Assembly (NCBI GenBank): GCA_024405635.1
Contig: JAKSOL010000001.1
Coordinates: 80,048-144,047 of the forward strand
DNA length: 64,000 bases
Reading direction: 5' to 3'
From: Salinivirgaceae bacterium
Lineage (GTDB): Bacteria > Bacteroidota > Bacteroidia > Bacteroidales > SZUA-534
The translations under genes and the position numbers were made by a program. The notes beneath the pieces were generated by a model that saw nothing but the letters and a program-made list of their open reading frames with translations, did no database searches and was not told where the DNA came from. This document shows, piece after piece, positions 3,001-27,030 of this stretch. The first letter of the stretch is position 1. Every line of letters starts with the position of its first letter.

Positions 3001-6000
3001 TGTACCTACGTTTGGCAAGACGGATCAACCAACCCAACATTAAGTATTACCAATCCAGCCTCGGCTCACTATGAAGTACGCGTAACCGATTCGCACAATT
3101 GTGCCACAGTTTTAGGTCAAACCGATATTAAAACCGACGATTGGCAAGTGGTTGAAATTACTTCGCCAACCGATATTTGTGCCCCCGAAAGTGACATTGC
3201 AGTGTCGTTTATTTTGAAAAACAATAGTGCCAATGTTTATTCTTCTAGCACCACATTAAAAGCCGATGTAATATTTGGAACAAAAAATTTCAGCGAGCAA
3301 TTTGCTTTGCCTGACAATGTTGGTGCATACGAGGAAATTGAATGCACGTTAAGTACCACCAAAGTTGATATGTCAAGCATTGGAGCTTATAACATAAAAC
3401 TCACCATTACTCCAAACTTCGACATCGACCGTACAAACAACCAAATTTTCGAAACGGTAAACTTGTGGGAGGTGAAAGACGTTGACCTTGGCGATCCTAT
3501 AATTTACACTCACCGTGCCGATACCATTACTCTTGATGCAGGCGCAGGTTGGGCTAGTTATAGTTGGAATGGTGGCCAGTCTGCTGCCCAAACATTTACC
3601 ATACCTAGCAACGAAGATGCTTCGTATTATGTCGAGGTTGAAGATATTCATGGTTGTCAGGGCTCTTTTGCACAAGTCGATATTGTTACTACCGATATTT
3701 ATGTAGAAGAAATTTTGTCGCCAACTACATCGTGCGACATTGCTGGAATTAGCACCATTAAATTGCGCATTCGCAACAACGGTATGAGCGCTATTTTGCC
3801 AGACACCGAACTGTCTTTTAAATTTACAATTGATAACGGAGTAGAGCAGAGCGAAACGTTTGTTTTAACCGAAGGCCTTGATTCTTGTGCAACTGCCATT
3901 GCCTTTTTCAATCACAACCTTAATCTAAATGCCAACTACGAGCACTCGTTCAAAATTCGTCTCGATTGGGACGAAGATCACTTCGTTGACAACAACTCGC
4001 TATCAACTCAAATTAAGCAATATCAACACCCAGAGTCATTTAACTTGGGCGACGATATGTACACTTCTCGCCCCGATACTTTGCATTATTCGTTGCCTAG
4101 CGGATATGTAAACTATATGTGGAGTCATGGCGAGCAAACCGCAGACGTTACCTTGCCATACACCGCTTCAACTCAATATTGGGCGCGTATCAGCAACGAG
4201 TATGGCTGCGTTTCAACCGACACATTCAACATTTACACTCACGACGTTGCGCTTAACATAACTGAAGGTGCAGTTGCACACTGCGAACCTTTTGAAGGTG
4301 AAACCGTTAAAGGCCAAATTGTAATGGAGTCGCTTGACGAAATTGACGAAACAACATCCTTTATTGTAACCTTTAGTGTAAATGGCTACACCGATAGCAA
4401 GACTATTACAGCTCCTAGTATTTCGCACACCGAGCCAGTTGACTTTAGTTTTGATGTGCCAATAACCTTACCTGAAATTGGCAACTACCAATTAACCACA
4501 AGCGTTGAAATGCTTGGTCATCGCGACGTTAACCTTGCAAACAATAACCAAGAGTCGGAAGTGCGAGTTGGCGCTTACCCTTTACCATTGCTCGATAAGG
4601 TTAAAACATACAACCAACTATCAGAAGGCTACGTAATTGATGCAGGTCCTAATTTCGTAAGTTTCGATTGGAGTGTTAGCGGTGAACACTCGCAACAACT
4701 AACCATCCACGAAACAGGAACATACAGCGTTACAGCAACCGACAATAATGGTTGCCAAACAACAGGCAAAACTTTTGTGTTCTTTGCCGAACCAAAATTC
4801 GAGATAACCGACCTTTATCAGTTTAACGACATGTGTAGCACAACCGACCCAGTTTCGGTTGGTTTCTTGCTGGCAAACTCGGGTAACGACACATTGTATG
4901 TTGGTAGCAAAATAGACATTGCATATACCATTGGCGCAAATGCTACAATTAACGAGCAATATGAAGTAACTACCGATATCTTACCAAAAGACACAATTCC
5001 TGTAGTGTTTAAAACTAAAGCCGATTTTAGCACCGCAAACGAAAGTGGCTATTTGGTTAATATCGAAGCATCGGTTGAGGGCGCAGCAAGCGTTTCGCGA
5101 CCTGTTATGATTCACGTTTGGCAACTCCCTAAAGTTGAACTCATTGAGGTGGTTAACGACAAAGATGGCGAACTCCTAACTCGTAACGTATCAACATTGA
5201 AATCAAGTTTCGAAATGGGAACCTCAGGAGTGTTTAACACCTATTTGTGGAGCAATAAATCAACCGGACAAACTCTAACCGTTGACAAAAGCGGCACTTA
5301 TTGGGTTACTGCAACCAACCAACATGGATGTAGAGCTGCCGATACCGTTGACCTCCACTTTATTCCTCCAACTGTGGCCATTATCGATATGAAAGCACCA
5401 AACTCGGTTTGTGGCAGCATCGACAACCAAACAGTAAGCGTGGTTATTATGAACAATGGCGAAAAAGTTGTTGATGCTGGAACCGACATCCATCTACATT
5501 ACATTGTTGACAAGTATGCCGATGTTTCAGAAGACTTGACTCTTAAATCCGATTTTGTTTATGGTGCAAGCATAAACTACGACTTTAAAAATAAACTAAC
5601 CATTGCCGAATCGGGCGACTATGCAGTCAAATTCATCTTAACAATAGGCGACGAAACAAAAGATACAAGCATATACAACTTGAGCGCTTATCCAGTGCCT
5701 GAATTTACTTTCCCACATGCCGAAATTAAGTCGAAAGAGTCTCCTTACACCATTGAGGCCCCAAAATCGGCAGTTTCCGACGTGGCTTACCTTTGGAGCA
5801 CTGGAGCAACATCAAACAGCATAAGTGTATTTGGCTCTGGTAAATACGAACTTACACTTACCACTCCACAAGGATGTAGCTTTACAAGTTCGGTGTCGTT
5901 TGTTTTAGAAAACAACCAAGGCATTGACGACGATAACATTTCAGAAGTGCAAATTCAAATGGTGAAACTATATCCAGTACCTGCGCGAAACTTGCTTAAC

Positions 6001-6189
6001 GTAAATTTGCCACATCAATTGCAAGGTTCAAACTTGGTAATAATGAATTCAGCAGGAATGGTTATTAGCAAAATTGATGCAGCTGAAATGGTAAATACTA
6101 TTGACGTTAGCAATTGGGCTCAAGGCGTTTACTTCTTGAATTTGGAAAACAACCAAGGTTCAGCAACATTCAAATTCATTGTTCAATAA
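1..6189 (+). CDS. Very large secreted surface protein, 5'-truncated by the window edge. It has two MAM/LamG-like (choice-of-anchor-J-like) jelly-roll domains, then alternating CARDB/Ig-like and 'YxW...G.Y.V...D..GC' beta-sandwich modules, and ends in a T9SS sorting domain.
   Basis: The reading frame is open from nt 1, with no stop upstream of the track's GTG at 70. 'SP(T/I)xxC...(V/I)x(V/L)xI(K/R)N(x)G' module starts recur at least 4 times. The 'Y(L/V/S/M)W..G......(I/L).V...G.Y.V...D..GC' module recurs about 7 times. The C-terminal ~80 aa (KLYPVPARNLLNVNL...GVYFLNLEN...FKFIVQ) match the T9SS type-A CTD pattern. Confidence 0.8.
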   Translation: MIETQVVNKYIENVYASQPNVNVVPTGSKDNPVLRLRFPVMGNDNKLMLQKLTVNALMQTKDAVPANGVKIYHTTTEYFSTNTLLGTASIVNGKAVFNNINYDLPYGNSYVWVACDVKQDNNHELKGYNIDFSVDANAIAINGINYPSSELNPTGQRTINESILINDFEESIAGWTFTGEFEWSEAKGLGSGSTGAKDPSYAHSGKKMIGTDISGLGTYPGDYELGIEGAGYKAVTPELNCYHYKDISLMFYRWFNVSFGDSATIDVSLDNGTTWNPLWENAVYISERDWSFHKISLGKFADRAPSVKLRFTLGPTGELMHLSGWNIDDVAVVGTFVYVDAAVTAINSPIDDCGLSSAEEVSVTIKNTGYSNISSSYKVSYSLDGKDWVTETVNHPLVRDEEFVYTFSKKADFSALGNHNLTVRVELPDDEYAKNDEVSTVIRSIPYFELPYAEEFEENDGYWRNIGNSTTWQYGRPTGDNISSAYKSNKCWFTKPANGYEANNVVYLESPCFNFSNVQRPMMSFAITGHSIENQDGVAVYYTTDNGRTWTLLPAGVEYSKLHWYNKSTNISALGSSGFSGTFGWTYIEQLLPVELAGKSAVKFRIMFATGAAKTTTQKIENGDGEEDDEYVDVIVPYDGFAIDNFKVFECPVDAGVLAITSPTSDCYLSKQQQISVSIKNYGIRAITPADTLSAAVELGSKVFHQKFFASTNIPVGQSATFTFDTTFNMYDKKTYNIVAYTELYGDTLLFSTINNDQATAQVSVLGEPAYTLGPDIGTLDPATCVVDGGKQSNGSDFVSYVWKCDGAQVSTNRKINGVSFADGTDRKTYTIEVQNSNNCISRDTIVVINSVRNIGVSAVEGLTNNGSICINKLNNEVTVTITNFSNREDLRVGETLGVGYILYDEEGHEQKTVETVQVPGTIGYNQSFRYKFTNKLNFITSGEQKVKFFTVVEADIQYDNDTTTLNMTVNPVPVVNLGSRYWQVADPTTITLDATNDFPCTYVWQDGSTNPTLSITNPASAHYEVRVTDSHNCATVLGQTDIKTDDWQVVEITSPTDICAPESDIAVSFILKNNSANVYSSSTTLKADVIFGTKNFSEQFALPDNVGAYEEIECTLSTTKVDMSSIGAYNIKLTITPNFDIDRTNNQIFETVNLWEVKDVDLGDPIIYTHRADTITLDAGAGWASYSWNGGQSAAQTFTIPSNEDASYYVEVEDIHGCQGSFAQVDIVTTDIYVEEILSPTTSCDIAGISTIKLRIRNNGMSAILPDTELSFKFTIDNGVEQSETFVLTEGLDSCATAIAFFNHNLNLNANYEHSFKIRLDWDEDHFVDNNSLSTQIKQYQHPESFNLGDDMYTSRPDTLHYSLPSGYVNYMWSHGEQTADVTLPYTASTQYWARISNEYGCVSTDTFNIYTHDVALNITEGAVAHCEPFEGETVKGQIVMESLDEIDETTSFIVTFSVNGYTDSKTITAPSISHTEPVDFSFDVPITLPEIGNYQLTTSVEMLGHRDVNLANNNQESEVRVGAYPLPLLDKVKTYNQLSEGYVIDAGPNFVSFDWSVSGEHSQQLTIHETGTYSVTATDNNGCQTTGKTFVFFAEPKFEITDLYQFNDMCSTTDPVSVGFLLANSGNDTLYVGSKIDIAYTIGANATINEQYEVTTDILPKDTIPVVFKTKADFSTANESGYLVNIEASVEGAASVSRPVMIHVWQLPKVELIEVVNDKDGELLTRNVSTLKSSFEMGTSGVFNTYLWSNKSTGQTLTVDKSGTYWVTATNQHGCRAADTVDLHFIPPTVAIIDMKAPNSVCGSIDNQTVSVVIMNNGEKVVDAGTDIHLHYIVDKYADVSEDLTLKSDFVYGASINYDFKNKLTIAESGDYAVKFILTIGDETKDTSIYNLSAYPVPEFTFPHAEIKSKESPYTIEAPKSAVSDVAYLWSTGATSNSISVFGSGKYELTLTTPQGCSFTSSVSFVLENNQGIDDDNISEVQIQMVKLYPVPARNLLNVNLPHQLQGSNLVIMNSAGMVISKIDAAEMVNTIDVSNWAQGVYFLNLENNQGSATFKFIVQ
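5947..6186 (+). other. T9SS type-A C-terminal sorting domain (Por secretion tail) of the large surface protein
   Basis: The terminal sequence VKLYPVPARNLLNVNLP...NLVIMNSAGMVISKID...GVYFLNLENNQGSATFKFIVQ is typical of TIGR04183-type CTDs. Confidence 0.75.
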
Positions 6190-8214: not shown

Positions 8215-9645
8215 ATGGAAGTAGGCAATTTGCTCAACAACGATATTTTTAAAGCAGTTTCGACCATTTTGGGGCAACGCAATCAGCAAGCTTTTGTAAT
8301 TGGAGGTTTTGTGCGTGATTGGAAATTGGGACGCCCATCAAACGATATCGATATAGTTACTGTTGGTAGTGGAATTGAATTGGCTACTGAAGTGGCTGCA
8401 TACCTTGGCAAAAAAGTGCATCGCAACATTAAAGTGTCGGTGTTTAAAAACTTTGGCACAGCCATGTTTAAGTTCAATAATATTGAGGTTGAATTTGTTG
8501 GTGCACGTAAAGAATCGTATAACCGAAATTCGCGCAAGCCTATTGTTGAAGATGGCACTTTAGAGGATGACCAATGTCGTCGCGATTTTACCATAAATGC
8601 ACTAGCCCTCAACTTACATCCCGACCATTATGGCGAATTGATTGACCCATTTGGTGGAATTCAGGACTTGGAAAATAAAATTATTCGCACTCCTCTTGAC
8701 CCCGATACCACATACTCTGACGACCCGTTGCGAATGTTGCGAGCCATAAGGTTTGCTACTCAACTCAATTTTATGATTGAAGACGAGTCGTTTGCCGCCA
8801 TTGAGCGTAATAAAGAGCGAATAAAAATTATTTCGCAAGAGCGTGTTATTGAGGAGTTTAATAAAATTATGCTTTCGCCGCAGCCGTCAGTGGGCATAAA
8901 GTTGCTTCAAAAAGTAGGGTTGCTTGCCATAGTTTTTCCTCAAATAGAGGCTCTTAAAGGTGTTGAGGTTATTGATGGTTGCCGACATAAAGACAATTTT
9001 TATCACACAATTGAGGTGCTTGATAATGTTTGCCGAACTTCTAACGACATTTGGCTTCGTTGGGCAGCATTGTTGCACGATGTGGGTAAACCAGTAACAA
9101 AAAAATATATTAAAGATCAGGGGTGGACTTTTCGTGGTCACGAATTTGTTGGCAGTAAAATGGTTCCACAAATCTTTAAACAGTTGAAACTTCCACTAAA
9201 TGAGAAGATGAAGTATGTGCAAAAAATGGTGTTGTTGCACATGCGCCCAATTGTTTTGGCCGAAGATATTGTGACCGATAGCGCAGTTCGTCGGTTGTTG
9301 TTTGAGGCTGGCGACGATATTGACGACCTAATGTTGTTGTGCGATGCCGATATTACTTCAAAAAATCCCGAAAAGGTTAGTCGTTACCTTGATAACTACC
9401 AACTTGTGCGAAGAAAATTGGTAGAGGTAGAGGAAAAAGATCGGGTGCGGAACTGGCAACCTCCTATTACTGGCGAAATGATTATTGAAACATTTAAGTT
9501 GTCGCCATGTAGGGCTATTGGTGATATAAAAAACGCAATAAAAGAGGCTATTCTTGATGGAGAGATTGAAAATTCGTACGAGGCTGCTTATGCGTTTATG
9601 CTTGAAAAAGGGCAAGAAATGGGCCTTAAAGTGGGGGGCAAATAG
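8215..9645 (+). CDS. CCA tRNA nucleotidyltransferase / poly(A) polymerase family protein with an HD domain
   Basis: It carries the nucleotidyltransferase motif [28 protein letters not shown], and the HD region ALLHDVGKP. Confidence 0.85.
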
Positions 9646-10185
9646 TTAATTGTCAATATATTCTTCTTCGTTGCCTTTATACCACTCGGCAAAGTCGATA
9701 TAGTGGTTGGCCGATTTGGTAATCATTGCTTCGCATTGTGCGGGCGAAAGGTCTTTTACTTTTTTTGCAGGAACTCCAGCATATACACTATTTGCCTCAA
9801 GTACAGTTCTTCCTAACACTAAGGCTCCAGCGGCAACAATTACGTTTGAGTTTACAACAGCATTGTCAAGTATGGTTGATCCCATGCCAATCAAAACATT
9901 GTCTTTTACTGTTGCTCCATGAACAGTGGCGTTGTGGCCAATGGTTACGTTGTTGCCAATAATGGTTTGCGATGTTTTAAAACTACCATGAATCACAGCC
10001 CCATCTTGAATGTTTGTGCAGTTGCCAATGCGTATTCCGCTAACGTCGCCGCGCAAAACTGCTCCGTACCAAATGCTGCAGTTGTCGCCGGTTTCAACAT
10101 CGCCAATTACAACGGCAGTTTCTGCTAAAAAATTGTTTTTGCCTAGTTTTGGTTTTACGCCATTCAGTGTTCTTATAAGTGCCAT
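9646..10185 (-). CDS. Gamma-carbonic-anhydrase-like / hexapeptide-repeat (LbH) protein
   Basis: Left-handed beta-helix hexapeptide repeats are present (VIGDVETGDNCSIWYGAVLRGDV..IRIGNCTNIQDGAVIH). The start is set at the ATG giving MALIRTLNG. Confidence 0.8.
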   Translation of the reverse strand: MALIRTLNGVKPKLGKNNFLAETAVVIGDVETGDNCSIWYGAVLRGDVSGIRIGNCTNIQDGAVIHGSFKTSQTIIGNNVTIGHNATVHGATVKDNVLIGMGSTILDNAVVNSNVIVAAGALVLGRTVLEANSVYAGVPAKKVKDLSPAQCEAMITKSANHYIDFAEWYKGNEEEYIDN

Positions 10186-17120: not shown

Positions 17121-17776
17121 AAAAACTATTGTTAATAATATCGGCATTGGTTGCTTCAACCTTTGCTAATGCCCAAGTTGATGAAGGTCGTCAACTGCTC
17201 GATAAAGTGGCGCAAAAGGCTAACAGCTACAAGAATATTTGCGCCGATTTTGTTTATGATTATGAGAATTTGGCCGAAGAAAAAACTGAAAGCCAACAAG
17301 GTACCTTGCTAATTAAGGGTAAAAAATTCCATATCGATTTTGAAGGTACAAGCATTTTTAGCGATGGAAAAAGTCGTTGGGTTTACCTTAAAGAAAGCAA
17401 CGAGGTTACCATTACCAAAATTGAAACCAAAGAATCGGACACTCCTGAAGATAGATTGCTAAGCGACCCAATGTCGTTGTTCTCATATCATAAAAATGGG
17501 TTCAAATATTTGTTGGTAGGTACCGAAATGGTTGCTGGCAAACAAATGCAAGTGGCTGAAATATCGCCAATTAACAAAAATCAAAAACTATTTAAGGTTA
17601 AGTATTGGATTGATGCAAACAACAACCTTTATCAAATAAAGTGTTTTCAAAAAGACGGAACACGCATCACTTTAACGCTAAATAACATGAAGGTGAATCA
17701 AAAAGTTGAGGATTCAAATTGCACCTTCAATGTGAGCCAATATCCTGATGTTGAGGTGATTGATATGCGCGACTAA
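17117..17776 (+). CDS. LolA-like outer-membrane lipoprotein carrier protein
   Basis: It has a signal peptide, its ATGA start overlaps the ftsK stop, and the ftsK-lolA pairing is the usual synteny. Length and beta-rich sequence are consistent with the LolA fold. Confidence 0.65.
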   Translation: MKKLLLIISALVASTFANAQVDEGRQLLDKVAQKANSYKNICADFVYDYENLAEEKTESQQGTLLIKGKKFHIDFEGTSIFSDGKSRWVYLKESNEVTITKIETKESDTPEDRLLSDPMSLFSYHKNGFKYLLVGTEMVAGKQMQVAEISPINKNQKLFKVKYWIDANNNLYQIKCFQKDGTRITLTLNNMKVNQKVEDSNCTFNVSQYPDVEVIDMRD

Positions 17777-18372
17777 ACGTTGTGTCCATTGTCGCGGCGA
17801 ATATCGTCAATCCATTTTTCAATTACTGGCGCTTTGTAACTTTTAAGTAAAGCAAACACCTCTTGTGGGGTATTTGCAAATAGGGCCATTGCCGAGTGCG
17901 GCTCAAGCAACATTTTGCTGCTAACCATGTGATTTAGTTGCTGTTGCAAATAACTGTAATAGTTTAGTGTATTGAGAAATACAACAGGTTTTTTGTGAAA
18001 TCCAAGTTGAGCAGCGGTAAGTACTTCAAAAGTTTCTTCTAATGTTCCAAAACCACCAGGCATTATTACAAAAGCATCGGCCAATTCTGCCATTTTTGCT
18101 TTGCGCTCTTGCATAGTTTCAACCACAATAAGTTCTTTTAGTCCTTGTTGGGTTAAGTGTTTTTGGGCTAAAAAGGTAGTTATAACGCCCGTAACTTCGG
18201 CACCACCTTGTATGGCTGCCTCGGCACAACAACGCATTAAACCCACATTGGCACCGCCATAAATCATGCCAAAACCTTGTTTGGCAATAAGTTGTCCCAA
18301 CTCGGTAGCTACCTTAGCATACTCGGGTTTGTCGCCCAAATTTGAACTACAAAACACACAAACGTTGTACAT
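17773..18372 (-). CDS. LOG-family protein (TIGR00730; cytokinin riboside 5'-monophosphate phosphoribohydrolase-like)
   Basis: It carries GGANVGLM and the PGGFGTLEE motif. The ATG at 18372 (MYNVCVFCSS) is preferred over the TTG at 18399. Confidence 0.85.
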   Translation of the reverse strand: MYNVCVFCSSNLGDKPEYAKVATELGQLIAKQGFGMIYGGANVGLMRCCAEAAIQGGAEVTGVITTFLAQKHLTQQGLKELIVVETMQERKAKMAELADAFVIMPGGFGTLEETFEVLTAAQLGFHKKPVVFLNTLNYYSYLQQQLNHMVSSKMLLEPHSAMALFANTPQEVFALLKSYKAPVIEKWIDDIRRDNGHNV

Positions 18373-18415
18373 AGTTTCATGTTGATGATGTTTTTGCAAA
18401 GGAACGAAAAAGATG
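18363..18415. repeat. Left copy of a 53-bp direct repeat (partner 25256-25308, 51/53 identical). It covers the first 10 nt of the LOG CDS plus 43 nt upstream.
   Basis: cgttgtacatagtttcatgttgatgatgtttttgcaaaggaacgaaaaagatg versus cgttgtacatagtttcaagttgatgatgtttttacaaaggaacgaaaaagatg. Confidence 0.95.
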
Positions 18416-18527
18416 GTAGTAAAGGTAATATTCCTATAATAGGTTTTTAATTAACGATTTTGAGTTGATACATGATTATACTTTACAACAAAAACATTCG
18501 CAACATTTAATAATTTGATACACAATC

Positions 18528-19808
18528 ATGCGACTCACAAAAGAGACTACTGGCAGCCAGTCAATAGCATATACCTACGACAGTTATAACCGCATCACAA
18601 AAAAGTCATACGTAATTGATGGCACAACCCTGAATTTTACCTATACTTACAACTCCAACGGGCAACTATCTTCAAAAACATTCCCCGACGGCATGACCGA
18701 AAACTACACATACGATAGCTACGGCAACCTATCATGCATTAAGATGGGCTCAACCCGTGTGTGGGAGCTTGATAGCTACAATGGTACAACACGCTCGGCA
18801 TATCTCGGCACGGCACCTTTGACGCATACAAAAAGCTATTCAACTAAAGGATTGCTCACAGGCACCTCAATAAAAAACGGCAGCACAACGCTCCACAGCT
18901 TTAGCTACACCATTGATGGCACCACAGGCAACCTTACTGCACGCACTGGCATGAACGGCTCTGAGAGTTTCACCTACGACCAGTTTGACCGACTTACAAA
19001 CGCAAAGGTTGGCAGTACCGACAATAAGGTAACTTACAAGTTAACTGGCAACATAAACAGCAAAACTAGCTTAGGCACATACTCCTACGATGCCACCAAG
19101 AAGCATGCCGTAACTAACATTGCTAACCTTAAGCCAACCAACCAAACCGTAACCTACAACGCATTCAACAAGGTGGCTAAAGTGGAAACCAACAGTGCCA
19201 CGCTAACCATAACCTACGGCCCCAACAGGCAACGGGTTAAAACCTACTACACAACCAGTGGTGTAACCCAAACCACGCTCTATGCCGATAACTACGAGCA
19301 GCGCACCGTAAACGGTACCGTGAGCACCTACCACTACGTGAGCAGTCCCGACGGACTGGTGGCAATATACGTAAAGAAAGGCACGGCGGCAATGACTCCC
19401 TATTACGTTGAGACCTACCACCTCGGCAGTATCTGCAAGATATACAACGCCGCAGGCACCAAGCAGTTTGATGCCACCTATGACGCATGGGGCAAGCAAA
19501 CCGTAAACGTCAACTACATAGGCATAACCCGCGGCTACACTGGCCACGAGCACTGGAACCAGTTTGGCTTGATAGACATGAACGGCAGGTTTTATGACCC
19601 AGTAGTAGGCCGTTTCCTCAGCCCCGACCCTTACGTGCAAGACCCCACCAACCTGCAGAACTTTAACCGCTACTCGTATTGCTTAAACAACCCACTGAAG
19701 TATAATGACCCGAGCGGGGAATGGATATTGACATGGGGTATTAATAAAGGAGGATTTAGTATTGGCTTGAATTTCGCGCCATATCCTGTTGGCTTTGGAA
19801 TCCAATAG
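18528..19808 (+). CDS. N-terminally truncated Rhs/YD-repeat protein with the RHS-repeat-associated core end and only a 28-aa tail
   Basis: YD repeats are present (YTYDSYNRIT, YTYNSNGQLS, YTYDSYGNLS, FTYDQFDRLT). The core end reads [60 protein letters not shown]. The ORF starts inside the repeat region, with AT-rich non-coding DNA upstream. Confidence 0.85.
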   Translation: MRLTKETTGSQSIAYTYDSYNRITKKSYVIDGTTLNFTYTYNSNGQLSSKTFPDGMTENYTYDSYGNLSCIKMGSTRVWELDSYNGTTRSAYLGTAPLTHTKSYSTKGLLTGTSIKNGSTTLHSFSYTIDGTTGNLTARTGMNGSESFTYDQFDRLTNAKVGSTDNKVTYKLTGNINSKTSLGTYSYDATKKHAVTNIANLKPTNQTVTYNAFNKVAKVETNSATLTITYGPNRQRVKTYYTTSGVTQTTLYADNYEQRTVNGTVSTYHYVSSPDGLVAIYVKKGTAAMTPYYVETYHLGSICKIYNAAGTKQFDATYDAWGKQTVNVNYIGITRGYTGHEHWNQFGLIDMNGRFYDPVVGRFLSPDPYVQDPTNLQNFNRYSYCLNNPLKYNDPSGEWILTWGINKGGFSIGLNFAPYPVGFGIQ

Positions 19809-19871
19809 GCGGTCACATGCGCGGACCAACCTCTTTCCTAAAAATTGGTTCAATCTTTTAACCTCACAGAA

Positions 19872-20486
19872 ATGAAAAATATATTGCTATTATTAATAAT
19901 GTTAGTAAGTTTTTCTGTTCAATCTCAAGATTGCGAATCTGCATTTATTGAAAGATTTACAAAGGCTTACACCAAAAATCAGAAATGGTTAAACAAGAAA
20001 GCTAAGAAAATATACCGCAATCATGGTAATGCTGATAGTGATAGCGTTAGCTTTATATTTGAAGTTGAAGTCTGGGCTAGTAAATTTAAAGAATGCGATT
20101 ACAATCCAGATATTGTTCTTTGTAAAATAGATTATTGGAACAAGAGATATACATATGCATTAGTATTTAAGGATACTCATTTTAAGGGTATAATAGATAT
20201 TTTTGATGAAGTTTATCACGATAGTGCTTTTGTTAATACATACTTCAAAGCACATTATAAACTATTTGAAGAGCTAAGGAATAATAAAATCGATTTGGCT
20301 TTCGACATCAATGGATTTGGAGGAAATTGTTATTGGTATATTGCAAATGAAAAATTATTTGTGTTGGCTCATTCTGAAAACGATAATGGCTACAAAATAT
20401 ATAATGCAAGTTCATATATGCACACTGTATATGACCCTCTAATGGCTCTTTTCGGAAGAAACAAGCGATTTAAAACGAAATACTAA
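19872..20486 (+). CDS. Candidate immunity protein 1 (signal peptide, AT-rich)
   Basis: It begins MKNILLLLIMLVSFSVQSQ and lies directly downstream of the Rhs tail. The call rests on position only. Confidence 0.5.
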   Translation: MKNILLLLIMLVSFSVQSQDCESAFIERFTKAYTKNQKWLNKKAKKIYRNHGNADSDSVSFIFEVEVWASKFKECDYNPDIVLCKIDYWNKRYTYALVFKDTHFKGIIDIFDEVYHDSAFVNTYFKAHYKLFEELRNNKIDLAFDINGFGGNCYWYIANEKLFVLAHSENDNGYKIYNASSYMHTVYDPLMALFGRNKRFKTKY

Positions 20487-20540
20487 CGATAATGAACTAT
20501 ACATGCACCTTTGGGAGTGTGTATAGTTCAATTTTTTAAA

Positions 20541-21776
20541 ATGATATCAGTTACAAGCATCTCATATTTTCAAGAGCAAGACTCAACCACAACCTCATAC
20601 TACGTTGAAACCGACCATCTTGGCAGCATCTGCAAAATATACGATGCCGCAGGCTCCAAGCAATACGACGCTACCTACGATGCATGGGGCAAGCAGACAG
20701 TTAATTACAACACGCTTGGCCTCACCCGAGGCTACTGCGCCCACGAGCATTGGAACCAGTTTGGCTTGATAGACATGAACGGCCGTTTCCTCAGCCCCGA
20801 CCCATACGTACAAGACCCCACCAACCTGCAGAACTTTAACCGCTACTCGTATTGCCTAAACAACCCACTGAAGTATAATGACCCGAGCGGGGAGTCTGCC
20901 GTATTGACTGCCGCAATTATAGGCGCAGTTGTTGGAACATATATAGGTGGAATAATGGCAAACAACACATACAATCCTATTAAATGGAACTATAACGAAC
21001 TCAAAACATGGGGCTATATGGGCGGTGGTGCAATAGTTGGTGCAGCTAGCGGTGCGGCGGGTGCCTACGTAGGAAGCACCGTAGGAGGTTATTTTGCAGG
21101 GTCAAGTTTTGTAGCAGGAGCGGCATCGGGCGCAGCGGCTGGAGCAGTTAGCGGCACTATTTCAGGAGCTGGGTATTCTTGGCTTAATGGAGCCTCTTTT
21201 AGACAAGGTGTTTGGAAAGGCTTTATTGGTGGCAATGTTGGTGGGCTAACTGGCGGTGTAATGGGAGGCTTGGCTGGAGGCATATCAGCATATAACAATG
21301 ATTGCAATTTCTGGAATGGCAAACCAAACACATTGTTAGATGAAATAGATTACAATCTTCCATTTTGCCCAAATGAAGGTAGTAATGATTGTTTTGTAAA
21401 ATCGGCCGAAGCTATTGAGAGCAAATTTGCCGAAAACCCTAGAACTTCTACACAATTAAGAACTAGTATTGGGAAGACAAAAAATGAATTGGTTAGTGTT
21501 GAGGATATGCAAAACAAAGCTGGATACAGGTTTACTACAACAAAGGACCGCTGTCAAGCATTTGAAAAGCTAAAAAATGGAAAACTATCTTTTCATGCAA
21601 CAGATTGGGGAGACGGCACTGGACATATGACAGCTGTTAATAAAATGCAAATGTGGCAACGAGCAAACGGTAAATTATATTTCCGATTATTTACTATGGA
21701 TTCTGCAAAAGGACAATATTCAAGAACATTAATAAATCGCTTTTACTTCGTTGAAGCCATCAGCCGAAACTTTTAA
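20541..21776 (+). CDS. Orphan Rhs core-tip (about the last 100 aa of the core), then a Gly/Ala-zipper segment and a variable C-terminal toxin-like domain (CT2, possible Cys/His peptidase fold)
   Basis: From about nt 20592, SYYVETDHLGSICKIYDAAGSKQYDATYDAWGKQTVN...[26 protein letters not shown]...KYNDPSGE aligns to 19390-19721 of the first Rhs ORF. The nearest in-frame ATG is at 20541. Confidence 0.75.
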   Translation: MISVTSISYFQEQDSTTTSYYVETDHLGSICKIYDAAGSKQYDATYDAWGKQTVNYNTLGLTRGYCAHEHWNQFGLIDMNGRFLSPDPYVQDPTNLQNFNRYSYCLNNPLKYNDPSGESAVLTAAIIGAVVGTYIGGIMANNTYNPIKWNYNELKTWGYMGGGAIVGAASGAAGAYVGSTVGGYFAGSSFVAGAASGAAAGAVSGTISGAGYSWLNGASFRQGVWKGFIGGNVGGLTGGVMGGLAGGISAYNNDCNFWNGKPNTLLDEIDYNLPFCPNEGSNDCFVKSAEAIESKFAENPRTSTQLRTSIGKTKNELVSVEDMQNKAGYRFTTTKDRCQAFEKLKNGKLSFHATDWGDGTGHMTAVNKMQMWQRANGKLYFRLFTMDSAKGQYSRTLINRFYFVEAISRNF

Positions 21777-21788
21777 TAACAGCTTACC

Positions 21789-22460
21789 ATGAAAAAAATT
21801 ATAAATCTAATAGTCTGCATGTTTGCTATTACTTGTAATGCTCAAAAAATTAAATACACTGAACGCGATATAGCAATAATTGACTCTTTGGCGAAAAAGG
21901 CTTTCGAAAAATGTATAACTAAAAACCAAATACAATCGATAGAAAAAATAGACCGTTCTTTATTTGAAGGATCCAAATTAATAGCAATACCTACTTGTAA
22001 AATACACAATGAACAATATTGGGTTATTGACACCTCACATGTTCCTTATTTGTCATTAATAATGAAAGATGAATCTTGCATTGGTGTTGTTAGTTCTGAC
22101 GATTGTAACAATAGTTATATTGATGTAAACTATTGCTACAAAAAGAATTTAGGGGGTTGTTCTAATGTTGGTCATATGGTAAATATTATTACCAATACAA
22201 AAGATAGTTTGATATTCAGCCTAAGAGGAACTGATGATAAAATACTTTTTATGTATAATCAAGACGAAATCAAATATGTTGATATAGTTGCCGATTATAT
22301 TGAAAATGAAGAAGTATATAATTCAGTTTCATTTGATATTAGAATGGTATCATTTAAATCATTAGATCAAATATCAAATTGTGGATTGCCAACAAGAGAA
22401 AAAAAGAAAAATTCAAAAAAGAATTTGCGACATCCACTAGAGAGTATTCTCTACGATTAA
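21789..22460 (+). CDS. Candidate immunity protein 2 (signal peptide / possible lipoprotein)
   Basis: It begins MKKIINLIVCMFAITCNAQ, starts 12 nt after the CT2 stop, and is AT-rich. Confidence 0.55.
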   Translation: MKKIINLIVCMFAITCNAQKIKYTERDIAIIDSLAKKAFEKCITKNQIQSIEKIDRSLFEGSKLIAIPTCKIHNEQYWVIDTSHVPYLSLIMKDESCIGVVSSDDCNNSYIDVNYCYKKNLGGCSNVGHMVNIITNTKDSLIFSLRGTDDKILFMYNQDEIKYVDIVADYIENEEVYNSVSFDIRMVSFKSLDQISNCGLPTREKKKNSKKNLRHPLESILYD

Positions 22461-22479
22461 CGAGTTAGTTCATTTTATT

Positions 22480-22526
22480 AAGCCGCAAGCGGAGTAATTT
22501 CTGCTTGCGGCTTATTACTAAAAAAC
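22480..22526 (+). terminator. Hairpin/terminator module, repeated at 25182-25228
   Basis: The stem is aagccgcaagc-ggagtaatttct-gcttgcggctt, followed by attactaaaaaa. A near-identical copy follows the last immunity-like ORF. Confidence 0.65.
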
Positions 22527-22558
22527 AACTTTTGAATATAACTTACACATATAACTAC

Positions 22559-23761
22559 AAGCAAACCGTAAACGTTAACTACATTGGCATAACCCGCGGC
22601 TACACAGGCCACGAGCACTGGAACCAGTTTGGTCTTATTGACATGAATTTTGCGATTGAGCGAGAGCAGAGTGAATATGTGGTAACATATTCAGCTATGC
22701 CGAGCGTGAGCAAAATGGGCGAAGCCAACTTCGGCCGTTTCTACGACCCAGTAGTAGGCCGCTTTCTCAGTCCCGACCCTTACGTGCAAGACCCAAGCAA
22801 CCCGCAGAACTTCAACCGCTACTCGTATTGCTTAAATAACCCGCTGAAGTATAATGACCCTAGTGGGGAATCTGCCGTATTGACGGCCGCAATTATAGGC
22901 GCAGTTATTGGAACATATATAGGAGGAACAATGGCAAACAACACTTATAATCCCATTAAATGGAACTATAGCGAACTCAAAACATGGGGATACATGGGCG
23001 GAGGTGCAATAGTTGGTGCGGCTAGCGGTGCAGCTGGTGCCTATGTTGGAAGCACCGTAGGAGGTTATTTTGCCAGTTCGAGTTTCGTTGCAGGATCTGC
23101 TTCGGGCGCAGCTGCTGGTGCCGTTGGTGGTACAATTTCAGGAGCTGGATATTCTTGGCTAGATGGAGCCTCTTTTAAACAAGGTGCTTGGAAAGGTTTT
23201 GTTAGCGGTAATGTTGGTGCTCTTACTGGCGGCTTGCTTGGTGGAATCGTTGGTGGCATTGATGCATATTGCGACGGCCGAAATGCGTGGACAGGCAAAG
23301 AAGTTGCCATGGGACGATCAAGGTTGGCTTTTAACAATACAGATTTGCTTGCAAACAAATACCAAGTTGGGCCAGGAGAAGTGCGAAATGCAAATTATAT
23401 AAATGAAGAAATGGCGAGCTCCAATCCAAAATATGACTATGCCAAATATGGTAAAGTTGATAAAAATGGCTTATCAACTGGTACTATTTCAAAGTACCAA
23501 AATTACACAATGGAAAGTAGAGAATATGAAGTGTTTCAGAATTTTAAAGGCAGGGCTTATTTGGAAGTAAAAAGCACAGGTACATTTGATGTTTCATTCA
23601 GTTTAGATGGTAAAATTATTACACCAGATTCAAATGGATTATTCCACTTACCCCAAGGATGTAAATTACTGCAAATAAATATGATTAGGTCAGAAACTTC
23701 ATCTATGATAAATGCGGTTTCACCTCTTAGATTTACAATTCAAGGCTACTCAATTCCTTAA
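22559..23761 (+). CDS. Orphan Rhs core-tip (about the last 60 aa of the core, with an 84-nt in-frame insertion), then the Gly/Ala-zipper and a variable C-terminal domain (CT3, unknown fold). It has no start codon at the homology boundary.
   Basis: [30 protein letters not shown][28-aa insert][46 protein letters not shown]. The frame is open only from 22469. The sole upstream start is a TTG inside the hairpin. Confidence 0.7.
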
Positions 23762-23775
23762 ATAAGTGTTTAAAA

Positions 23776-24465
23776 ATGAACAATTTTATATACGCAAAGA
23801 ACATACTTGTAAGTTTGTTCTTGTTACTTCCATTTTTTTCAATGTCACAATCAGATGAAATTGGTTGGGCAATATTCAATTATCCCCAAAATATTACGAT
23901 TAACGGGGCAAAATACACATATCATTATGCAAATGGTGATGAGGCAGAAACAGATTCGTTACTTTATGAACCAAACGAATATTTTAAGTTCTTTCCTAAA
24001 AATCATAAACTTAATGAATTGGACACTATGGATTTTGTGTATGGTTCAAGGAAAGTTCATAAAGTTTACGGGAAGAAAATTCAGTACAATAAGCAACATG
24101 ATTATGTGTCATTTTTATCTTGGAACGAAGGCACTGAATACCTACTAATTACGTTTAAAGAGAAGGATTTGTTTATTGAATATTGCGATTCAACCATTAA
24201 GTCACCTAATAGCATTGCGATGGTAAAAAGAATGAATAAAGTTAGAAGTGTTATTGTAAAGAGTAAGATTAAAAAAATAGAGAAACTAAGCCACAACATT
24301 GAGTACAATGCTGAATCTATTTCCACTCCCCCTATAGTTTTTGAATTGAAAATTGGAGATAATTACAAGATATTACCCATTCTAACCTTAGACGCGCCAA
24401 AAGCATTTAAAAAATCATATAGTTTGTACAAAAGGCTAATAAATAATGCAAAAAAAGGCATATGA
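23776..24465 (+). CDS. Candidate immunity protein 3 (signal peptide)
   Basis: It begins MNNFIYAKNILVSLFLLLPFFSMSQS, starts 15 nt after the CT3 stop, and is AT-rich. Confidence 0.55.
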   Translation: MNNFIYAKNILVSLFLLLPFFSMSQSDEIGWAIFNYPQNITINGAKYTYHYANGDEAETDSLLYEPNEYFKFFPKNHKLNELDTMDFVYGSRKVHKVYGKKIQYNKQHDYVSFLSWNEGTEYLLITFKEKDLFIEYCDSTIKSPNSIAMVKRMNKVRSVIVKSKIKKIEKLSHNIEYNAESISTPPIVFELKIGDNYKILPILTLDAPKAFKKSYSLYKRLINNAKKGI

Positions 24466-24600
24466 CTGCTGTAAATAAAATGCAAATGTGGCAACGAACT
24501 AATGGTAAAATTTATTATCGCTTATTTACAATGGATTCGGCCAAAGGACAATACACAAGAACCGCTATTAATCGGTTTTATTGTTGAAGCGATAAGAACA
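24459..24600 (+). pseudogene. Remnant of the 3' end of a CT2-like toxin gene
   Basis: tatgactgctgtaaataaaatgcaaatgtggcaacgaactaatggtaaa... aligns to 21624-21776 (HMTAVNKMQMWQRANGKLYFRLFTMDSAKGQYSRT...). A 1-nt deletion gives a premature stop (RFYC*). Confidence 0.85.
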
Positions 24601-24703
24601 TGACTTTAGATGTTACTTAAAATCATTTACTTCACGCTCAAATGTATTTACGCTCTGCTGGAGTGCGCCCTTTGCTTTATTCTTACTATTTAAACCAATA
24701 AAC

Positions 24704-25155
24704 ATGAAACTCCTAAGTATCATTATAATGATTTGCAGCATCGGATCAACAATAAAGTCAGATATCGATTTAATGAACTAAGCGAAGTTCAGCTATACTC
24801 TTATTTCACAGAACAAGGGGCCCGAAAACTTGAACTCAATTCTAAATTTGATGAATTCAAAAGAGATTCAATAAATAAAATAACTATTGAGCAAGAAGAC
24901 GTACAAGTAATTAGACAAATTTTGTCAACCGCAGAGAGATACAAATTAAAAGGTGATAAGGTTGGAATAAACTTATTGTATTTTGATTTTATTTTTTCTT
25001 CAAGCACTAATTCTCAGCAGTTTATATTAGTAAACAATAGCAGTTTTATCGACTTAAATAACAATTGTGCGTATATAGTTAACAACGATAAGCATCGTAT
25101 GTGGCTTAAAGAGTTTCTAAACAAATACAGAAATGTGGTATCCTCAATATTTTGA
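24704..25155 (+). pseudogene. Immunity-like gene 4, apparently frameshifted (signal peptide in one frame, body in another)
   Basis: The ATG at 24704 encodes MKLLSIIIMICSIGST... and stops at 24781. The 140-aa ORF (24733-25155) is in a different frame, has no ATG, and is open from 24694. Confidence 0.55.
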
Positions 25156-25181
25156 ATCGGAGTAACTTTATAAAAATCAAG

Positions 25182-25228
25182 AGCCGCAAGCGGAGTATTT
25201 TCAGCTTGTGGCTTATTGCTATAAAAAA
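25182..25228 (+). terminator. Second copy of the island hairpin/terminator module
   Basis: The stem is agccgcaagc-ggagtattttca-gcttgtggct, followed by tattgctataaaaaa. Confidence 0.6.
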
Positions 25229-25255
25229 GCCAACAATTAAACAGAGAGAATATTC

Positions 25256-25308
25256 CGTTGTACATAGTTTCAAGTTGATGATGTTTTTACAAAGGAACGA
25301 AAAAGATG
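25256..25308. repeat. Right copy of the 53-bp direct repeat flanking the Rhs island
   Basis: It matches 18363-18415 at 51 of 53 positions. Confidence 0.95.
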
Positions 25309-25416
25309 TCTGCAAAGACAATAAACAATAGCATTGCATCGTAAAAGTAAGTGCTATTTTATACCTTTGGAAACTATGCTAAAAAAGCATCACCACGAAT
25401 TAATTTGATAAATAAA

Positions 25417-27030
25417 ATGATACGTAAGTTATTCGCTATTACTTGTTTGGCTTTTGTTGGGCTAGCAACATCTGCGCAAAATACCTTTAGTGTGCAGAAC
25501 TACAAGATGAGCCGAGTGCTAACTTTAATCGACCATTTGTATGTTGACACCGTTGACGATGCAAAGATTGTTGAGGCTGGCATCGTTGCAATGCTCAAAG
25601 AACTTGACCCTCATTCGATATATGTTTCGCCCGACGAGGTAAAAGAAATGAACGAACCGCTTGAGGGTAATTTTGAAGGCATAGGCATTCAGTTTAGCAT
25701 TATTAACGATACACTGATGGCGGTAGGTATTATTCCCGGTGGCCCTTCGGAGCGGGTTGGACTAATGGCTGGCGACCGTATTCTGTATATCGACTCGACA
25801 AATGTTGCTGGAGTTGGAATAACAAACAACGATGTTTTTAAAAAGCTACGTGGCAAAAAAGGAACAAAGGTTACGGTAAAAATTCAGCGTCATGGTTCGC
25901 CCGAGTTGCTCGAATTTACCATCACTCGCGACAAAATTCCAATCTATAGTGTTGATGCATCGTATGTTATCGACAAAAAAGAAAAGATAGGATATGTTAA
26001 AGTGAACAAGTTTGCTGCAACAACAACCGACGAATATACCAAGGCAATGGAAAAATTGCGCAAGGCTGGTGTTCGTAATCTGATTCTTGACCTTACTGAC
26101 AATGGTGGAGGTTTCTTAAATTCAGGTTTTGACCTTGCTAGTCAATTCTTAAACGATGGACAAATGGTAGTTTATACCGATGGAGTTAAACAACCACGTC
26201 AAGATTACAGAGCGCGTGGCAAAAAAAGTTTGGACTACGATAGAGTTGTAGTAATGGTTGACGAGGGGTCGGCATCGGCAAGCGAAATTGTAACTGGTGC
26301 TCTTCAAGATTGGGACCGTGCTGTGGTTGTTGGTCGTCGCACTTTTGGTAAGGGATTGGTACAAAATCAGTTCCCGCTAACCGATGGGTCAATGATTCGA
26401 CTTACAGTTGCTCGCTATTACACACCAACAGGTCGTTGCATTCAGCGTCCATATTCGGCAGGCGTTGATCAGTACGAGCAAGATTTTATTGACCGTTACA
26501 ACAATGGCGAACTTAATAGTGCCGATTCAATTCATCTGCCAACTTCTGAAATTTATTATACACTTAATAGTCATCGTCCGGTGTACGGCGGTGGTGGCAT
26601 TATACCCGACATTTTTGTGCCTATCGATACAACTTATTATTCAGACTATTATGCAAGAATGATTCGTAGCGGCATATTTAATCGCTTTGTTATTGAGTAT
26701 ATCGACACTCATCGCGACTCGCTTGAACGTGTTTACAAAAGCACAAAAACCGATGCCGATTTTGACAAGTTTAATGCAAAGTTTGAGGTTACCGATGCTT
26801 TGCTGCAAGAATTGATTGATTATGCAGCAAAAAATAAACTTGAGTACGTTGATGCTGATTTTGCTCGTAGTAAAGAGTATATCCGTTTTTACTTAAAGGC
26901 GGCAATTTCGCGCGATTTGTACGATAGTGGAGAGTTTTACCAAATTTATAATTTGCATAACCCAATTTTTAAAGAGGCTGTAAGAGTTATTAAAGACGTT
27001 GATTTGTATAACTCAAAATTGGCAAAGTAA
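25417..27030 (+). CDS. S41-family C-terminal processing (tail-specific) peptidase with a PDZ domain
   Basis: It has a signal peptide (MIRKLFAITCLAFVGLATSAQ), a PDZ region (GIGIQF...GGPSERVGLMAGDRILYID) and the catalytic region VVMVDEGSASASEI...GRRTFGKG. Confidence 0.88.
   Translation: MIRKLFAITCLAFVGLATSAQNTFSVQNYKMSRVLTLIDHLYVDTVDDAKIVEAGIVAMLKELDPHSIYVSPDEVKEMNEPLEGNFEGIGIQFSIINDTLMAVGIIPGGPSERVGLMAGDRILYIDSTNVAGVGITNNDVFKKLRGKKGTKVTVKIQRHGSPELLEFTITRDKIPIYSVDASYVIDKKEKIGYVKVNKFAATTTDEYTKAMEKLRKAGVRNLILDLTDNGGGFLNSGFDLASQFLNDGQMVVYTDGVKQPRQDYRARGKKSLDYDRVVVMVDEGSASASEIVTGALQDWDRAVVVGRRTFGKGLVQNQFPLTDGSMIRLTVARYYTPTGRCIQRPYSAGVDQYEQDFIDRYNNGELNSADSIHLPTSEIYYTLNSHRPVYGGGGIIPDIFVPIDTTYYSDYYARMIRSGIFNRFVIEYIDTHRDSLERVYKSTKTDADFDKFNAKFEVTDALLQELIDYAAKNKLEYVDADFARSKEYIRFYLKAAISRDLYDSGEFYQIYNLHNPIFKEAVRVIKDVDLYNSKLAK

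Follow-up and report, generated by a model that had tools for sequence, protein, structure and literature searches.

A repeat-bounded island of truncated Rhs genes and immunity-like genes in a Bacteroidales genome

Introduction

Orphan rhs-CT/rhsI modules and C-terminal displacement have been described in enterobacteria (Poole et al., 2011, PMC3150448; Jackson et al., 2009, cited after PMC6421346; Koskiniemi et al., 2014, PMC3967940). For Salmonella, it was shown experimentally that an orphan can be re-armed by recombination (PMC3967940). In the Flavobacteriaceae, 'Candidatus Ornithobacterium hominis' has large rhs genes of the SpvB/TcdB type that are accompanied by 'dissociated tips' (Salter et al., 2019, PMC6421346). 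AID/rAID-1 immunity islands are known from gut Bacteroidales (Ross et al., 2019, bioRxiv 10.1101/471110). Here, we describe a discrete 6.9-kb island composed of Rhs toxin fragments and immunity-like genes. It is located at positions 18363-25323 of a 64,000-nt stretch of DNA (the window; contig JAKSOL010000001.1, positions 80,048 to 144,047) from the metagenome-assembled genome (MAG) of a gut-type Bacteroidales, Salinivirgaceae bacterium (GCA_024405635.1).

The island is probably an orphan-only array of Rhs tips and immunity genes that is partly decayed and owes its retention chiefly to immunity and to its use as a recombination reservoir. A first-pass annotation, made from the sequence without database searches, had drawn attention to the locus. 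Its claims are taken up below together with the results that bear on them.

A truncated rhs gene at the left end

The island comprises the open reading frame (ORF) ORF1, two shorter core-tip fusions (ORF2 and ORF3), three immunity-like ORFs (IMM1 to IMM3), the remnant of a fourth toxin (frag4) and ORF8. All of them lie on the plus strand (Table 1). Gene calls bear out the annotated position between two divergent genes, a LOG-family gene (17773-18372, minus strand) and an S41 peptidase gene (25417-27030, plus strand).

ORF1 had been described as a YD-repeat ORF of 426 aa that begins inside the repeats. Profile searches agree: it matches RHS_repeat (PF05593; 3.7e-11, 43.6 bits, cut-off 22), YD_repeat (TIGR01643; 1.6e-7) and Rhs_assc_core (TIGR03696; 8e-19, 67.9 bits, cut-off 32.5). 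In an exhaustive search of representative proteins, ORF1 residues 1-409 correspond to residues 1279-1682 of the 1964-aa protein P0265 with 65% identity. About 100 of the top 150 representatives have lengths of 1100-2600 aa, and ORF1 aligns near their C-terminal third. At the nucleotide level, homology to a full-length rhs gene begins exactly at 18529. Since ORF1 aligns from residue 1279 of full-length relatives, it is truly decapitated and has neither a complete shell nor an N-terminal delivery/secretion region. Judged from these alignments, ORF1 is the remainder of a rhs gene of about 2000 aa from which the first ~1278 codons and the larger part of the original tip have been lost. What is left of this tip, CT1, is a 28-aa stump that aligns with the beginning of ~250-aa tips in P0002, P0012 and P0287; the last of these is a 1791-aa protein with a tip of the CT1 type.

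A naturally short Rhs family had to be considered, as a first search yielded only proteins of at most 745 aa. It is ruled out by the ~2000-aa relatives from the exhaustive search. The word-index homologue search appears to be biased to query-like lengths, with matches up to ~1.75 times the query length: a 118-aa core query returned only sequences of at most 205 aa and missed ORF1, so that the lack of long homologues in this search is uninformative.

The first-pass annotation had noted the lack of a full-length rhs gene in the locus. A tblastn search of the whole window confirmed this and found no Rhs sequence besides the island copies. A candidate for the missing gene, an ORF of 2039 aa at 70-6189, shows no Rhs signal. 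It contains a type IX secretion system (T9SS) C-terminal sorting domain (PF18962, 5.6e-12) as well as Ig, BNR and Reelin-like repeats. This ORF encodes a giant secreted surface protein, and the host presumably has a T9SS.

The full-length relatives indicate what ORF1 is missing. P0265, P0270 and P0274 combine SpvB, an FG-GAP propeller and RHS repeats in a TcB-TcC-fusion-like architecture. P0266 (1459 aa) has FG-GAP and RHS and no SpvB match. By eye, P0265 begins with a signal-peptide-like sequence. The full-length order is Sec signal peptide, SpvB, FG-GAP propeller, RHS shell, core, glycine-zipper and tip. SpvB and FG-GAP/VCBS are absent from the ORFs of the window, and the island represents a fragment of this family and not a complete member. 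The canonical layout is found in the relative L010, where the main gene is followed by an immunity gene, a 642-aa orphan and another immunity gene.

In both full-length loci fetched, L010 and L007, the ~1970-aa SpvB/FG-GAP/RHS gene is preceded, at a distance of 13 nt, by an additional 159-aa gene (9509-9988 in each), whose product carries a T9SS C-terminal sorting domain (PF18962, 9e-15) and gives one weak RHS-repeat match. The island of the window lacks this gene. The sequence hints that it might be a T9SS-linked partner of Sec-signal Rhs proteins.

The junction of LOG gene, leader and ORF1 is repeated in the assembly GCA_045643365.1 (L002) and in Logan contigs from four runs (L001, L022, L023), and apparently also in a JGI contig known from its protein-cluster records and not from DNA. 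L002 and L001 have a leader identical to that of the window, the leader of L022 differs by three mismatches in 97 nt, and LOG is located 155 nt upstream of ORF1 in the window, L001, L002 and L022. The same left junction in independent assemblies means that the truncation of ORF1 is no mis-assembly. A complete rhs N-terminus contiguous with 18528, named in the first-pass annotation as a test, was not found; it is the truncated junction that recurs. The right half, from IMM2 through S41, is reproduced by the Logan contig L004.

For the island as a whole, it could be argued that the repeated cores led the MAG assembler to join cassettes of different strains or loci. The source is a metagenome bin, and the Logan contigs of run SRR17543910 break at 19583 and restart at 20864. 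However, the left junction and the right half were reproduced independently, and the core copies differ by 8-20%, which is enough for an assembly to resolve them. The doubt is confined to the order around IMM1 and core 2, and an assembly artefact is very unlikely.

Orphan tips and their companion genes

All three core copies pass the TIGR03696 cut-off of 32.5 bits (67.9, 37.7 and 47.3 bits for copies 1, 2 and 3), and ORF1 also passes that of PF05593, as the profile check proposed in the first-pass annotation had foreseen. The copies finish at one 12-residue boundary that includes DPSGE, as had been noticed by inspection. Copies 2 and 3 keep none of the repeats upstream of the core. Their lengths had been estimated at ~100 and ~60 codons. 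Alignment confirms the additional copies and corrects the lengths: copy 2 corresponds to ORF1 residues 281-398 (118 codons) minus a 24-nt deletion, and copy 3 to 76 ORF1 core codons plus an 84-nt in-frame insertion at 22648-22731. Likewise, the copies are not near-identical as had been stated: identity to copy 1 is 92% for copy 3 and ~80% for copy 2. The annotation lists ORF2 as a 411-aa protein, and an in-frame ATG is available at 20541. For ORF3, only TTG candidates are available, in accordance with the earlier remark that the third copy lacks a regular start.

Table 1. Features of the island, with positions in the window
Feature	Position	Strand	Description
ORF1	18528..19808	+	426 aa; 397 aa of YD-shell and core to DPSGE at 19721, then 28-aa CT1 stump
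ORF2	20541..21776	+	core copy 2 (20565-20894), glycine-zipper pre-toxin to ~21323, tip CT2 of ~150 aa; TIGR03696 2.2e-9
ORF3	22532..23761	+	TTG start; core copy 3 (22559-22870), glycine-zipper to ~23299, tip CT3 of ~150 aa; TIGR03696 2.3e-12
IMM1	19872..20486	+	204 aa, immunity-like; signal-peptide-like N-terminus; G+C ~0.28; MCQ2374356.1; no family match
IMM2	21789..22460	+	223 aa, immunity-like; lipoprotein-like signal sequence; also in independent Logan contig L004
IMM3	23776..24465	+	229 aa, immunity-like; signal-peptide-like N-terminus; adjoins CT3 in four other contigs
frag4	24462..24587	+	final 41 codons of a toxin similar to CT2; matches ORF2 residues 372-412 with 88% aa identity
ORF8	24733..25155	+	140 aa, without signal peptide; not annotated by NCBI
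Left 68-nt repeat	18363..18430		spans the LOG start codon (first 10 nt of LOG coding sequence and 58 nt upstream); high similarity between lineages begins here
Leader	18431..18527	+	97 nt, AT-rich, not Rhs-derived; rhs homology starts at 18529
Hairpin D8, copy 1	22479..22525		G+C-rich; 45-nt repeat at 22481; boundary of cassettes 2 and 3
Hairpin D8, copy 2	25181..25226		45-nt repeat at 25182; inside the right-end block ~25124-25255
Right 68-nt repeat	25256..25323		94 nt upstream of the S41 ATG; beyond it, similarity between lineages falls from ~97% to ~85%

The copies had been said to be fused to different C-terminal sequences. This holds for the last ~150 aa of CT2 and CT3. Immediately after DPSGE, both share a glycine-zipper region of ~145 residues (90% nucleotide identity), which is also present on the full-length relatives P0265, P0384 and P0386. 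Among the sequences fetched, the terminal ~150 aa of CT2 and CT3 occur in orphan contexts only.

Each core copy is followed by an immunity-like ORF, and toxin and immunity ORFs lie close together, with gaps of 12-14 nt. The description of these ORFs as AT-rich was accurate (G+C 0.27-0.33), as was that of the core as richer in G+C, with 0.46-0.54 for core and glycine-rich parts. The signal peptides ascribed to the small ORFs were judged by eye. Searches of toxin tips and immunity-like ORFs against Pfam, NCBIfam and PDB sequences gave weak sub-threshold matches at best. As CT2 contains Cys and His, a papain-like activity might be guessed. The immunity export signals, together with the glycine-zipper region, suggest targets in the envelope or periplasm.

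Orphan rhs genes of Salmonella have been reported to serve as internal toxin-antitoxin systems (PMC7043789). In the island, the orphan tips would, by this reading, be made from internal starts and exert their effect within the producing cell, along with their immunity partners. The in-frame ATG of ORF2 and the tight spacing between toxin and immunity genes are compatible with such a use. By contrast, the export signals place the immunity-like proteins outside the cytoplasm, unlike a cytoplasmic antitoxin, and promoter motifs were not found; the 97-nt leader contains no TAnnTTTG (the Bacteroidetes -7 motif). Internal use of the tips is, therefore, highly improbable. Sigma-70 and terminator scans remained at chance level. 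A search of the island against Rfam returned a single match (E 0.96), which is far below the gathering score and not credible.

The right part of the island contains two further remnants. The alignment with ORF2 identifies frag4 as the leftover of a displaced cassette. ORF8 is possibly a leftover immunity gene; it is also present in one of the island variants described below (variant C), where it is frameshifted near codon 117. Neither of these, nor the 68-nt direct repeat, the 45-nt hairpin repeat or the horizontal sharing treated in the next section, had been recognized in the first-pass annotation.

The 84-nt insertion in core copy 3 adds 28 aa between DMN and GRFYDP and folds as an imperfect palindrome (z -4.9). 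Similar elements are located in other arrays, at L024:2227-2324 and 4244-4343 and at L025:2681-2780 and 5441-5527. In these four core copies, the element is 95-96% identical, whereas the surrounding core shows 82-90%. A one-off miniature inverted-repeat transposable element was rejected, since the insertion is in frame and recurs in other arrays; it is a conserved core variant or element.

Spread between lineages and rearrangement

The island is bracketed by a 68-nt direct repeat (family D7, copies 88% identical). In the housekeeping genes that flank it, the window and a second lineage, lineage C, differ with a dS of 0.75-0.83 and a nucleotide divergence of ~10-19%. The ends of the island are only 1-3% diverged between the lineages, and the right end is 98% identical. 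The switch in divergence takes place at the outer edges of the direct repeats (~18350-18363 and 25323-25358). That the island ends are far more alike than the flanking genes points to horizontal sharing between species-level lineages, with the island as a discrete unit that moved between them. Logan contigs of several other samples stop inside either repeat. Their left-flank and right-flank ends overlap by 27-30 nt, which would be expected at a repeated k-mer. The repeats could be either att-like sites or substrates for Campbell-type homologous integration. No island ORF matched a recombinase family in Pfam or NCBIfam. An empty LOG|S41 junction would have the form LOG start ...CACACAAACGTTGTACATAGTTTCAWGTTGATGATGTTTTTRCAAAGGAACGAAAAAGATGTCTGCAAAG... 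S41 side. No empty site of this kind was found, and a LolA-based scan of metagenome contigs gave no close relative.

Beside the island, at 17500-18200, tracts of the LolA 3' end and LOG that are 0-2% diverged from L018 alternate with tracts at 9-19%, in a lineage that otherwise differs by 10-15%. This looks like inter-species homologous recombination.

Three variants of the island were found. Variant A is that of the window. In variant B (L002 and, as inferred from shared protein clusters, apparently also the JGI contig), ORF1 extends to 19582 and is followed by 20-27 nt of the 84-nt element, unique sequence and a 165-aa membrane ORF, before the window sequence is rejoined at ~25124. Variant C (L022/L023, a 1895-nt contig that runs from repeat to repeat) has ORF1 up to 19554, 38 unique nt and then window 24625-25285. 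The repeats, leader and truncated start recur in all three, as does the right-end block (~25124-25255) with the D8 hairpin, so that variation is confined between core and block. The break points of variants B and C are located inside the core, and the core of L002 is a mosaic of cores 1 and 2. Furthermore, the cassette 3 module (22544-24512) recurs as a unit with 90-95% identity in four unrelated arrays (L024-L027). In L027, a frag4 homologue and then an IMM2-like gene are found. The variants, the mosaic and the spread of cassette 3 are what would be expected of a rearrangement hot spot. The D8 hairpin occurs in two copies only in the 64-kb window, with none expected by chance. An integron-like cassette array was excluded, because there is no integrase and the hairpin is present at only two of five boundaries.

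In L024 (1275-2186), a 303-aa protein whose N-terminus resembles a signal peptide is preceded, in frame, by the first 17 codons of a frag4-type remnant (MTAVNKMQMWQRANGKL). This fusion illustrates how chimeric starts for downstream immunity-like genes arise from cassette displacement.

Among GTDB genomes, the exact core pattern was found on one 3.7-kb MAG contig, L003, which is another orphan array. Within it, a PD-(D/E)XK nuclease-family 'transposase' is encoded on the minus strand (L003:1037-1981; PF12784, 2.9e-74). In P0058, a fragment resembling this sequence is fused ahead of the Rhs part. The PF12784 nuclease may be a recombination-promoting partner of such arrays.

One might assume that the island is a non-functional wreck whittled down by deletions between core repeats and kept by chance. 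The 28-aa CT1 stump, the 41-codon remnant frag4, the frameshift of ORF8 in variant C and the character of variants B and C as 1.8-2.1-kb deletion derivatives would be in line with this, and so would the missing ATG of ORF3 and the -7 promoter motifs that were not found. On the other hand, the reading frames of CT2, CT3 and IMM1-3 are intact, with lengths of 200-420 aa, four other arrays contain cassette 3 with 90-95% identity, and substitutions in ORF1 are strongly biased to synonymous ones. In addition, the island is far more alike between lineages than are housekeeping genes, which indicates recent spread and not passive retention. Pure decay is unlikely. The first-pass annotation had left the choice between reservoir and decay open. 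Exchange finds some support in the L002 mosaic and the ORF1 patches (see below), and so does decay in CT1, frag4 and the deletion derivatives.

The substitutions that separate the ORF1 alleles are mainly synonymous (omega 0.06-0.16; P of neutrality 1e-7 to 1e-24). Between window and L022, the mismatches are clustered (variance/mean 4, P ~1e-8): four patches (18606-18665, 18906-19025, 19266-19325 and 19446-19505) have 7-12 mismatches per 60 nt, and most other stretches 0-1 per 60 nt. Most of the patches lie within 18606-19325, a shell part that has no second copy in the island; the donor should, therefore, be a longer rhs gene outside it. Gene conversion from such a gene is the simplest reading of these patches, and the low omega of ORF1 would then be a legacy of functional donors. 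The low omega had at first suggested in-situ purifying selection on ORF1, a reading that was tempered because the mismatches cluster like conversion tracts.

The same values could be taken as a sign that ORF1 is a working TcC-like C-terminal shell subunit of a split Rhs protein, with the TcB-like part encoded elsewhere. In favour of a split protein are the purifying-type pattern of ORF1, the ATG start and leader conserved in all three variants and the TcB-TcC-fusion-like architecture of the full-length family. However, ORF1 has lost its toxin, with only 28 aa after DPSGE, and is cut further, inside the core, in variants B and C. The RHS part of a TcC subunit is longer than ~390 aa, and the ~390 aa that ORF1 provides before the core end fall below this length. 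Moreover, conversion from functional donors, visible in the clustered mismatches, explains the low omega. A split Rhs protein is, thus, extremely improbable.

Possible roles of the island

As encoded, ORF1-3 would be undeliverable, because none of them has a signal peptide, SpvB, propeller or complete shell. With undeliverable toxin ORFs, the island would most likely be kept for its immunity genes. By analogy with AID islands, the exported immunity-like proteins might protect the cell from the same tips fired by neighbours that have full-length genes. At the same time, the island could be a store of the tips CT2 and CT3: homologous recombination in the core might graft them onto a full-length rhs gene elsewhere, or the island might receive rhs sequence in return. 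Parts of it are decaying already.

A more far-reaching proposal is that the island acts as a self-contained, mobilisable platform for the exchange of tips and immunity genes, i.e. an AID-like defence island for Sec/SpvB-type (possibly T9SS-linked) Rhs toxins. Entry at LOG|S41 would occur via 53-68-nt repeats, by att-like or Campbell-type recombination of an excised circle. Cassettes would be swapped between the truncated Rhs core as left handle and the hairpin block as right handle, and breaks might occur preferentially at the conserved 84-nt structured insertion that some of the cores contain. This proposal is unlikely.

Several points weigh against an array kept for immunity and as a reservoir. 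The join of ORF1, IMM1 and ORF2 (19583-20864) is seen in the MAG assembly alone; the SRR17543910 Logan contigs are identical to the window, end at 19583 and resume at 20864. The L022 island is linked to the lineage-C flanks by the 27-30-nt overlap and the LolA/LOG tracts, with no spanning contig. Low omega could mean that ORF1 itself is translated and useful. A full-length partner rhs gene is suggested by the conversion patches alone; they lend indirect support to a reservoir and are no proof of a full-length gene in this genome. Tips and immunity ORFs received no family or PDB assignment, and single-sequence AlphaFold models reached a pLDDT of ~36. Finally, the missing -7 motif is only weak evidence that the cassettes are silent.

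The island extends the picture of orphan Rhs tips and immunity genes from enterobacteria to the poorly studied Sec/SpvB/FG-GAP Rhs proteins of Bacteroidales. It is a clean natural example of a locus that has lost its delivery gene, whereas its immunity genes and spare tips have been retained and pass from species to species. Should the immunity reading be true, Rhs warfare in gut and rumen Bacteroidales would select portable defence islands, as type VI secretion system (T6SS) warfare does with AID. The three strain variants and the conversion patches provide a ready-made system to measure the rate of array rearrangement.

Comparison with described systems

The closest parallel is provided by the enterobacterial orphans, to which the first-pass annotation had already compared the locus. 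The likeness holds for the array of core-tip fusions and immunity genes. In both cases, a partial core reaches to a DPxG boundary and is followed by a variable tip and a small downstream immunity ORF, the cassettes lack proper starts, the core is a recombination substrate and modules recur in other arrays. In the island, three such units of partial core, tip and small ORF are arranged in tandem, followed by the remnant of a fourth. The likeness does not extend to the protein family, which is of the Sec/SpvB/FG-GAP type (TcB-TcC-fusion-like) and not linked to T6SS PAAR/VgrG. Moreover, enterobacterial orphan arrays are located downstream of a full-length rhs gene in the same locus, whereas no such gene heads the island. 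The island also differs by its boundary, DPSGE followed by a ~145-aa glycine-zipper, and by being a repeat-bounded unit shared across species.

E. coli K-12 RhsE is a 5'-truncated Rhs element that keeps the 3' core, its extension and a downstream ORF. It is a single remnant, in contrast to the multi-cassette array of the island. To our knowledge, there is no evidence that RhsE is a horizontally shared, repeat-bounded unit.

The rhs genes of 'Candidatus Ornithobacterium hominis' come from the same phylum, belong to the SpvB/TcdB-signature family and have a TIGR03696 core. They resemble the island in hypervariable C-termini and unique small downstream ORFs, and small ORFs were read as displaced tips there, too. 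These tips accompany a main gene of more than 9 kb, whereas the island has no main gene and its first copy is decapitated.

With AID islands, the island of the window shares arrays of low-G+C orphan immunity genes, pseudogenised remnants, horizontal sharing in Bacteroidales and a plausible benefit, i.e. protection from toxins of neighbours. Like rAID-1, it contains co-directional, horizontally acquired orphan immunity genes with a G+C content of at most 41%, the immunity function being predicted. AID genes, however, are homologues of T6SS immunity genes, whereas the island keeps two intact tips and Rhs core fragments. Furthermore, the defining features of rAID-1, a 5' XerD-like recombinase together with integron-like intergenic repeats, are both missing from the island. 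Membership in rAID-1 was ruled out, as there is no recombinase among the island ORFs.

Orphan rhs modules as well as dissociated tips of the SpvB/TcdB type in Bacteroidetes have already been described, and the island does not overturn current understanding. Only its headless, repeat-bounded state and its presence across species are unusual.

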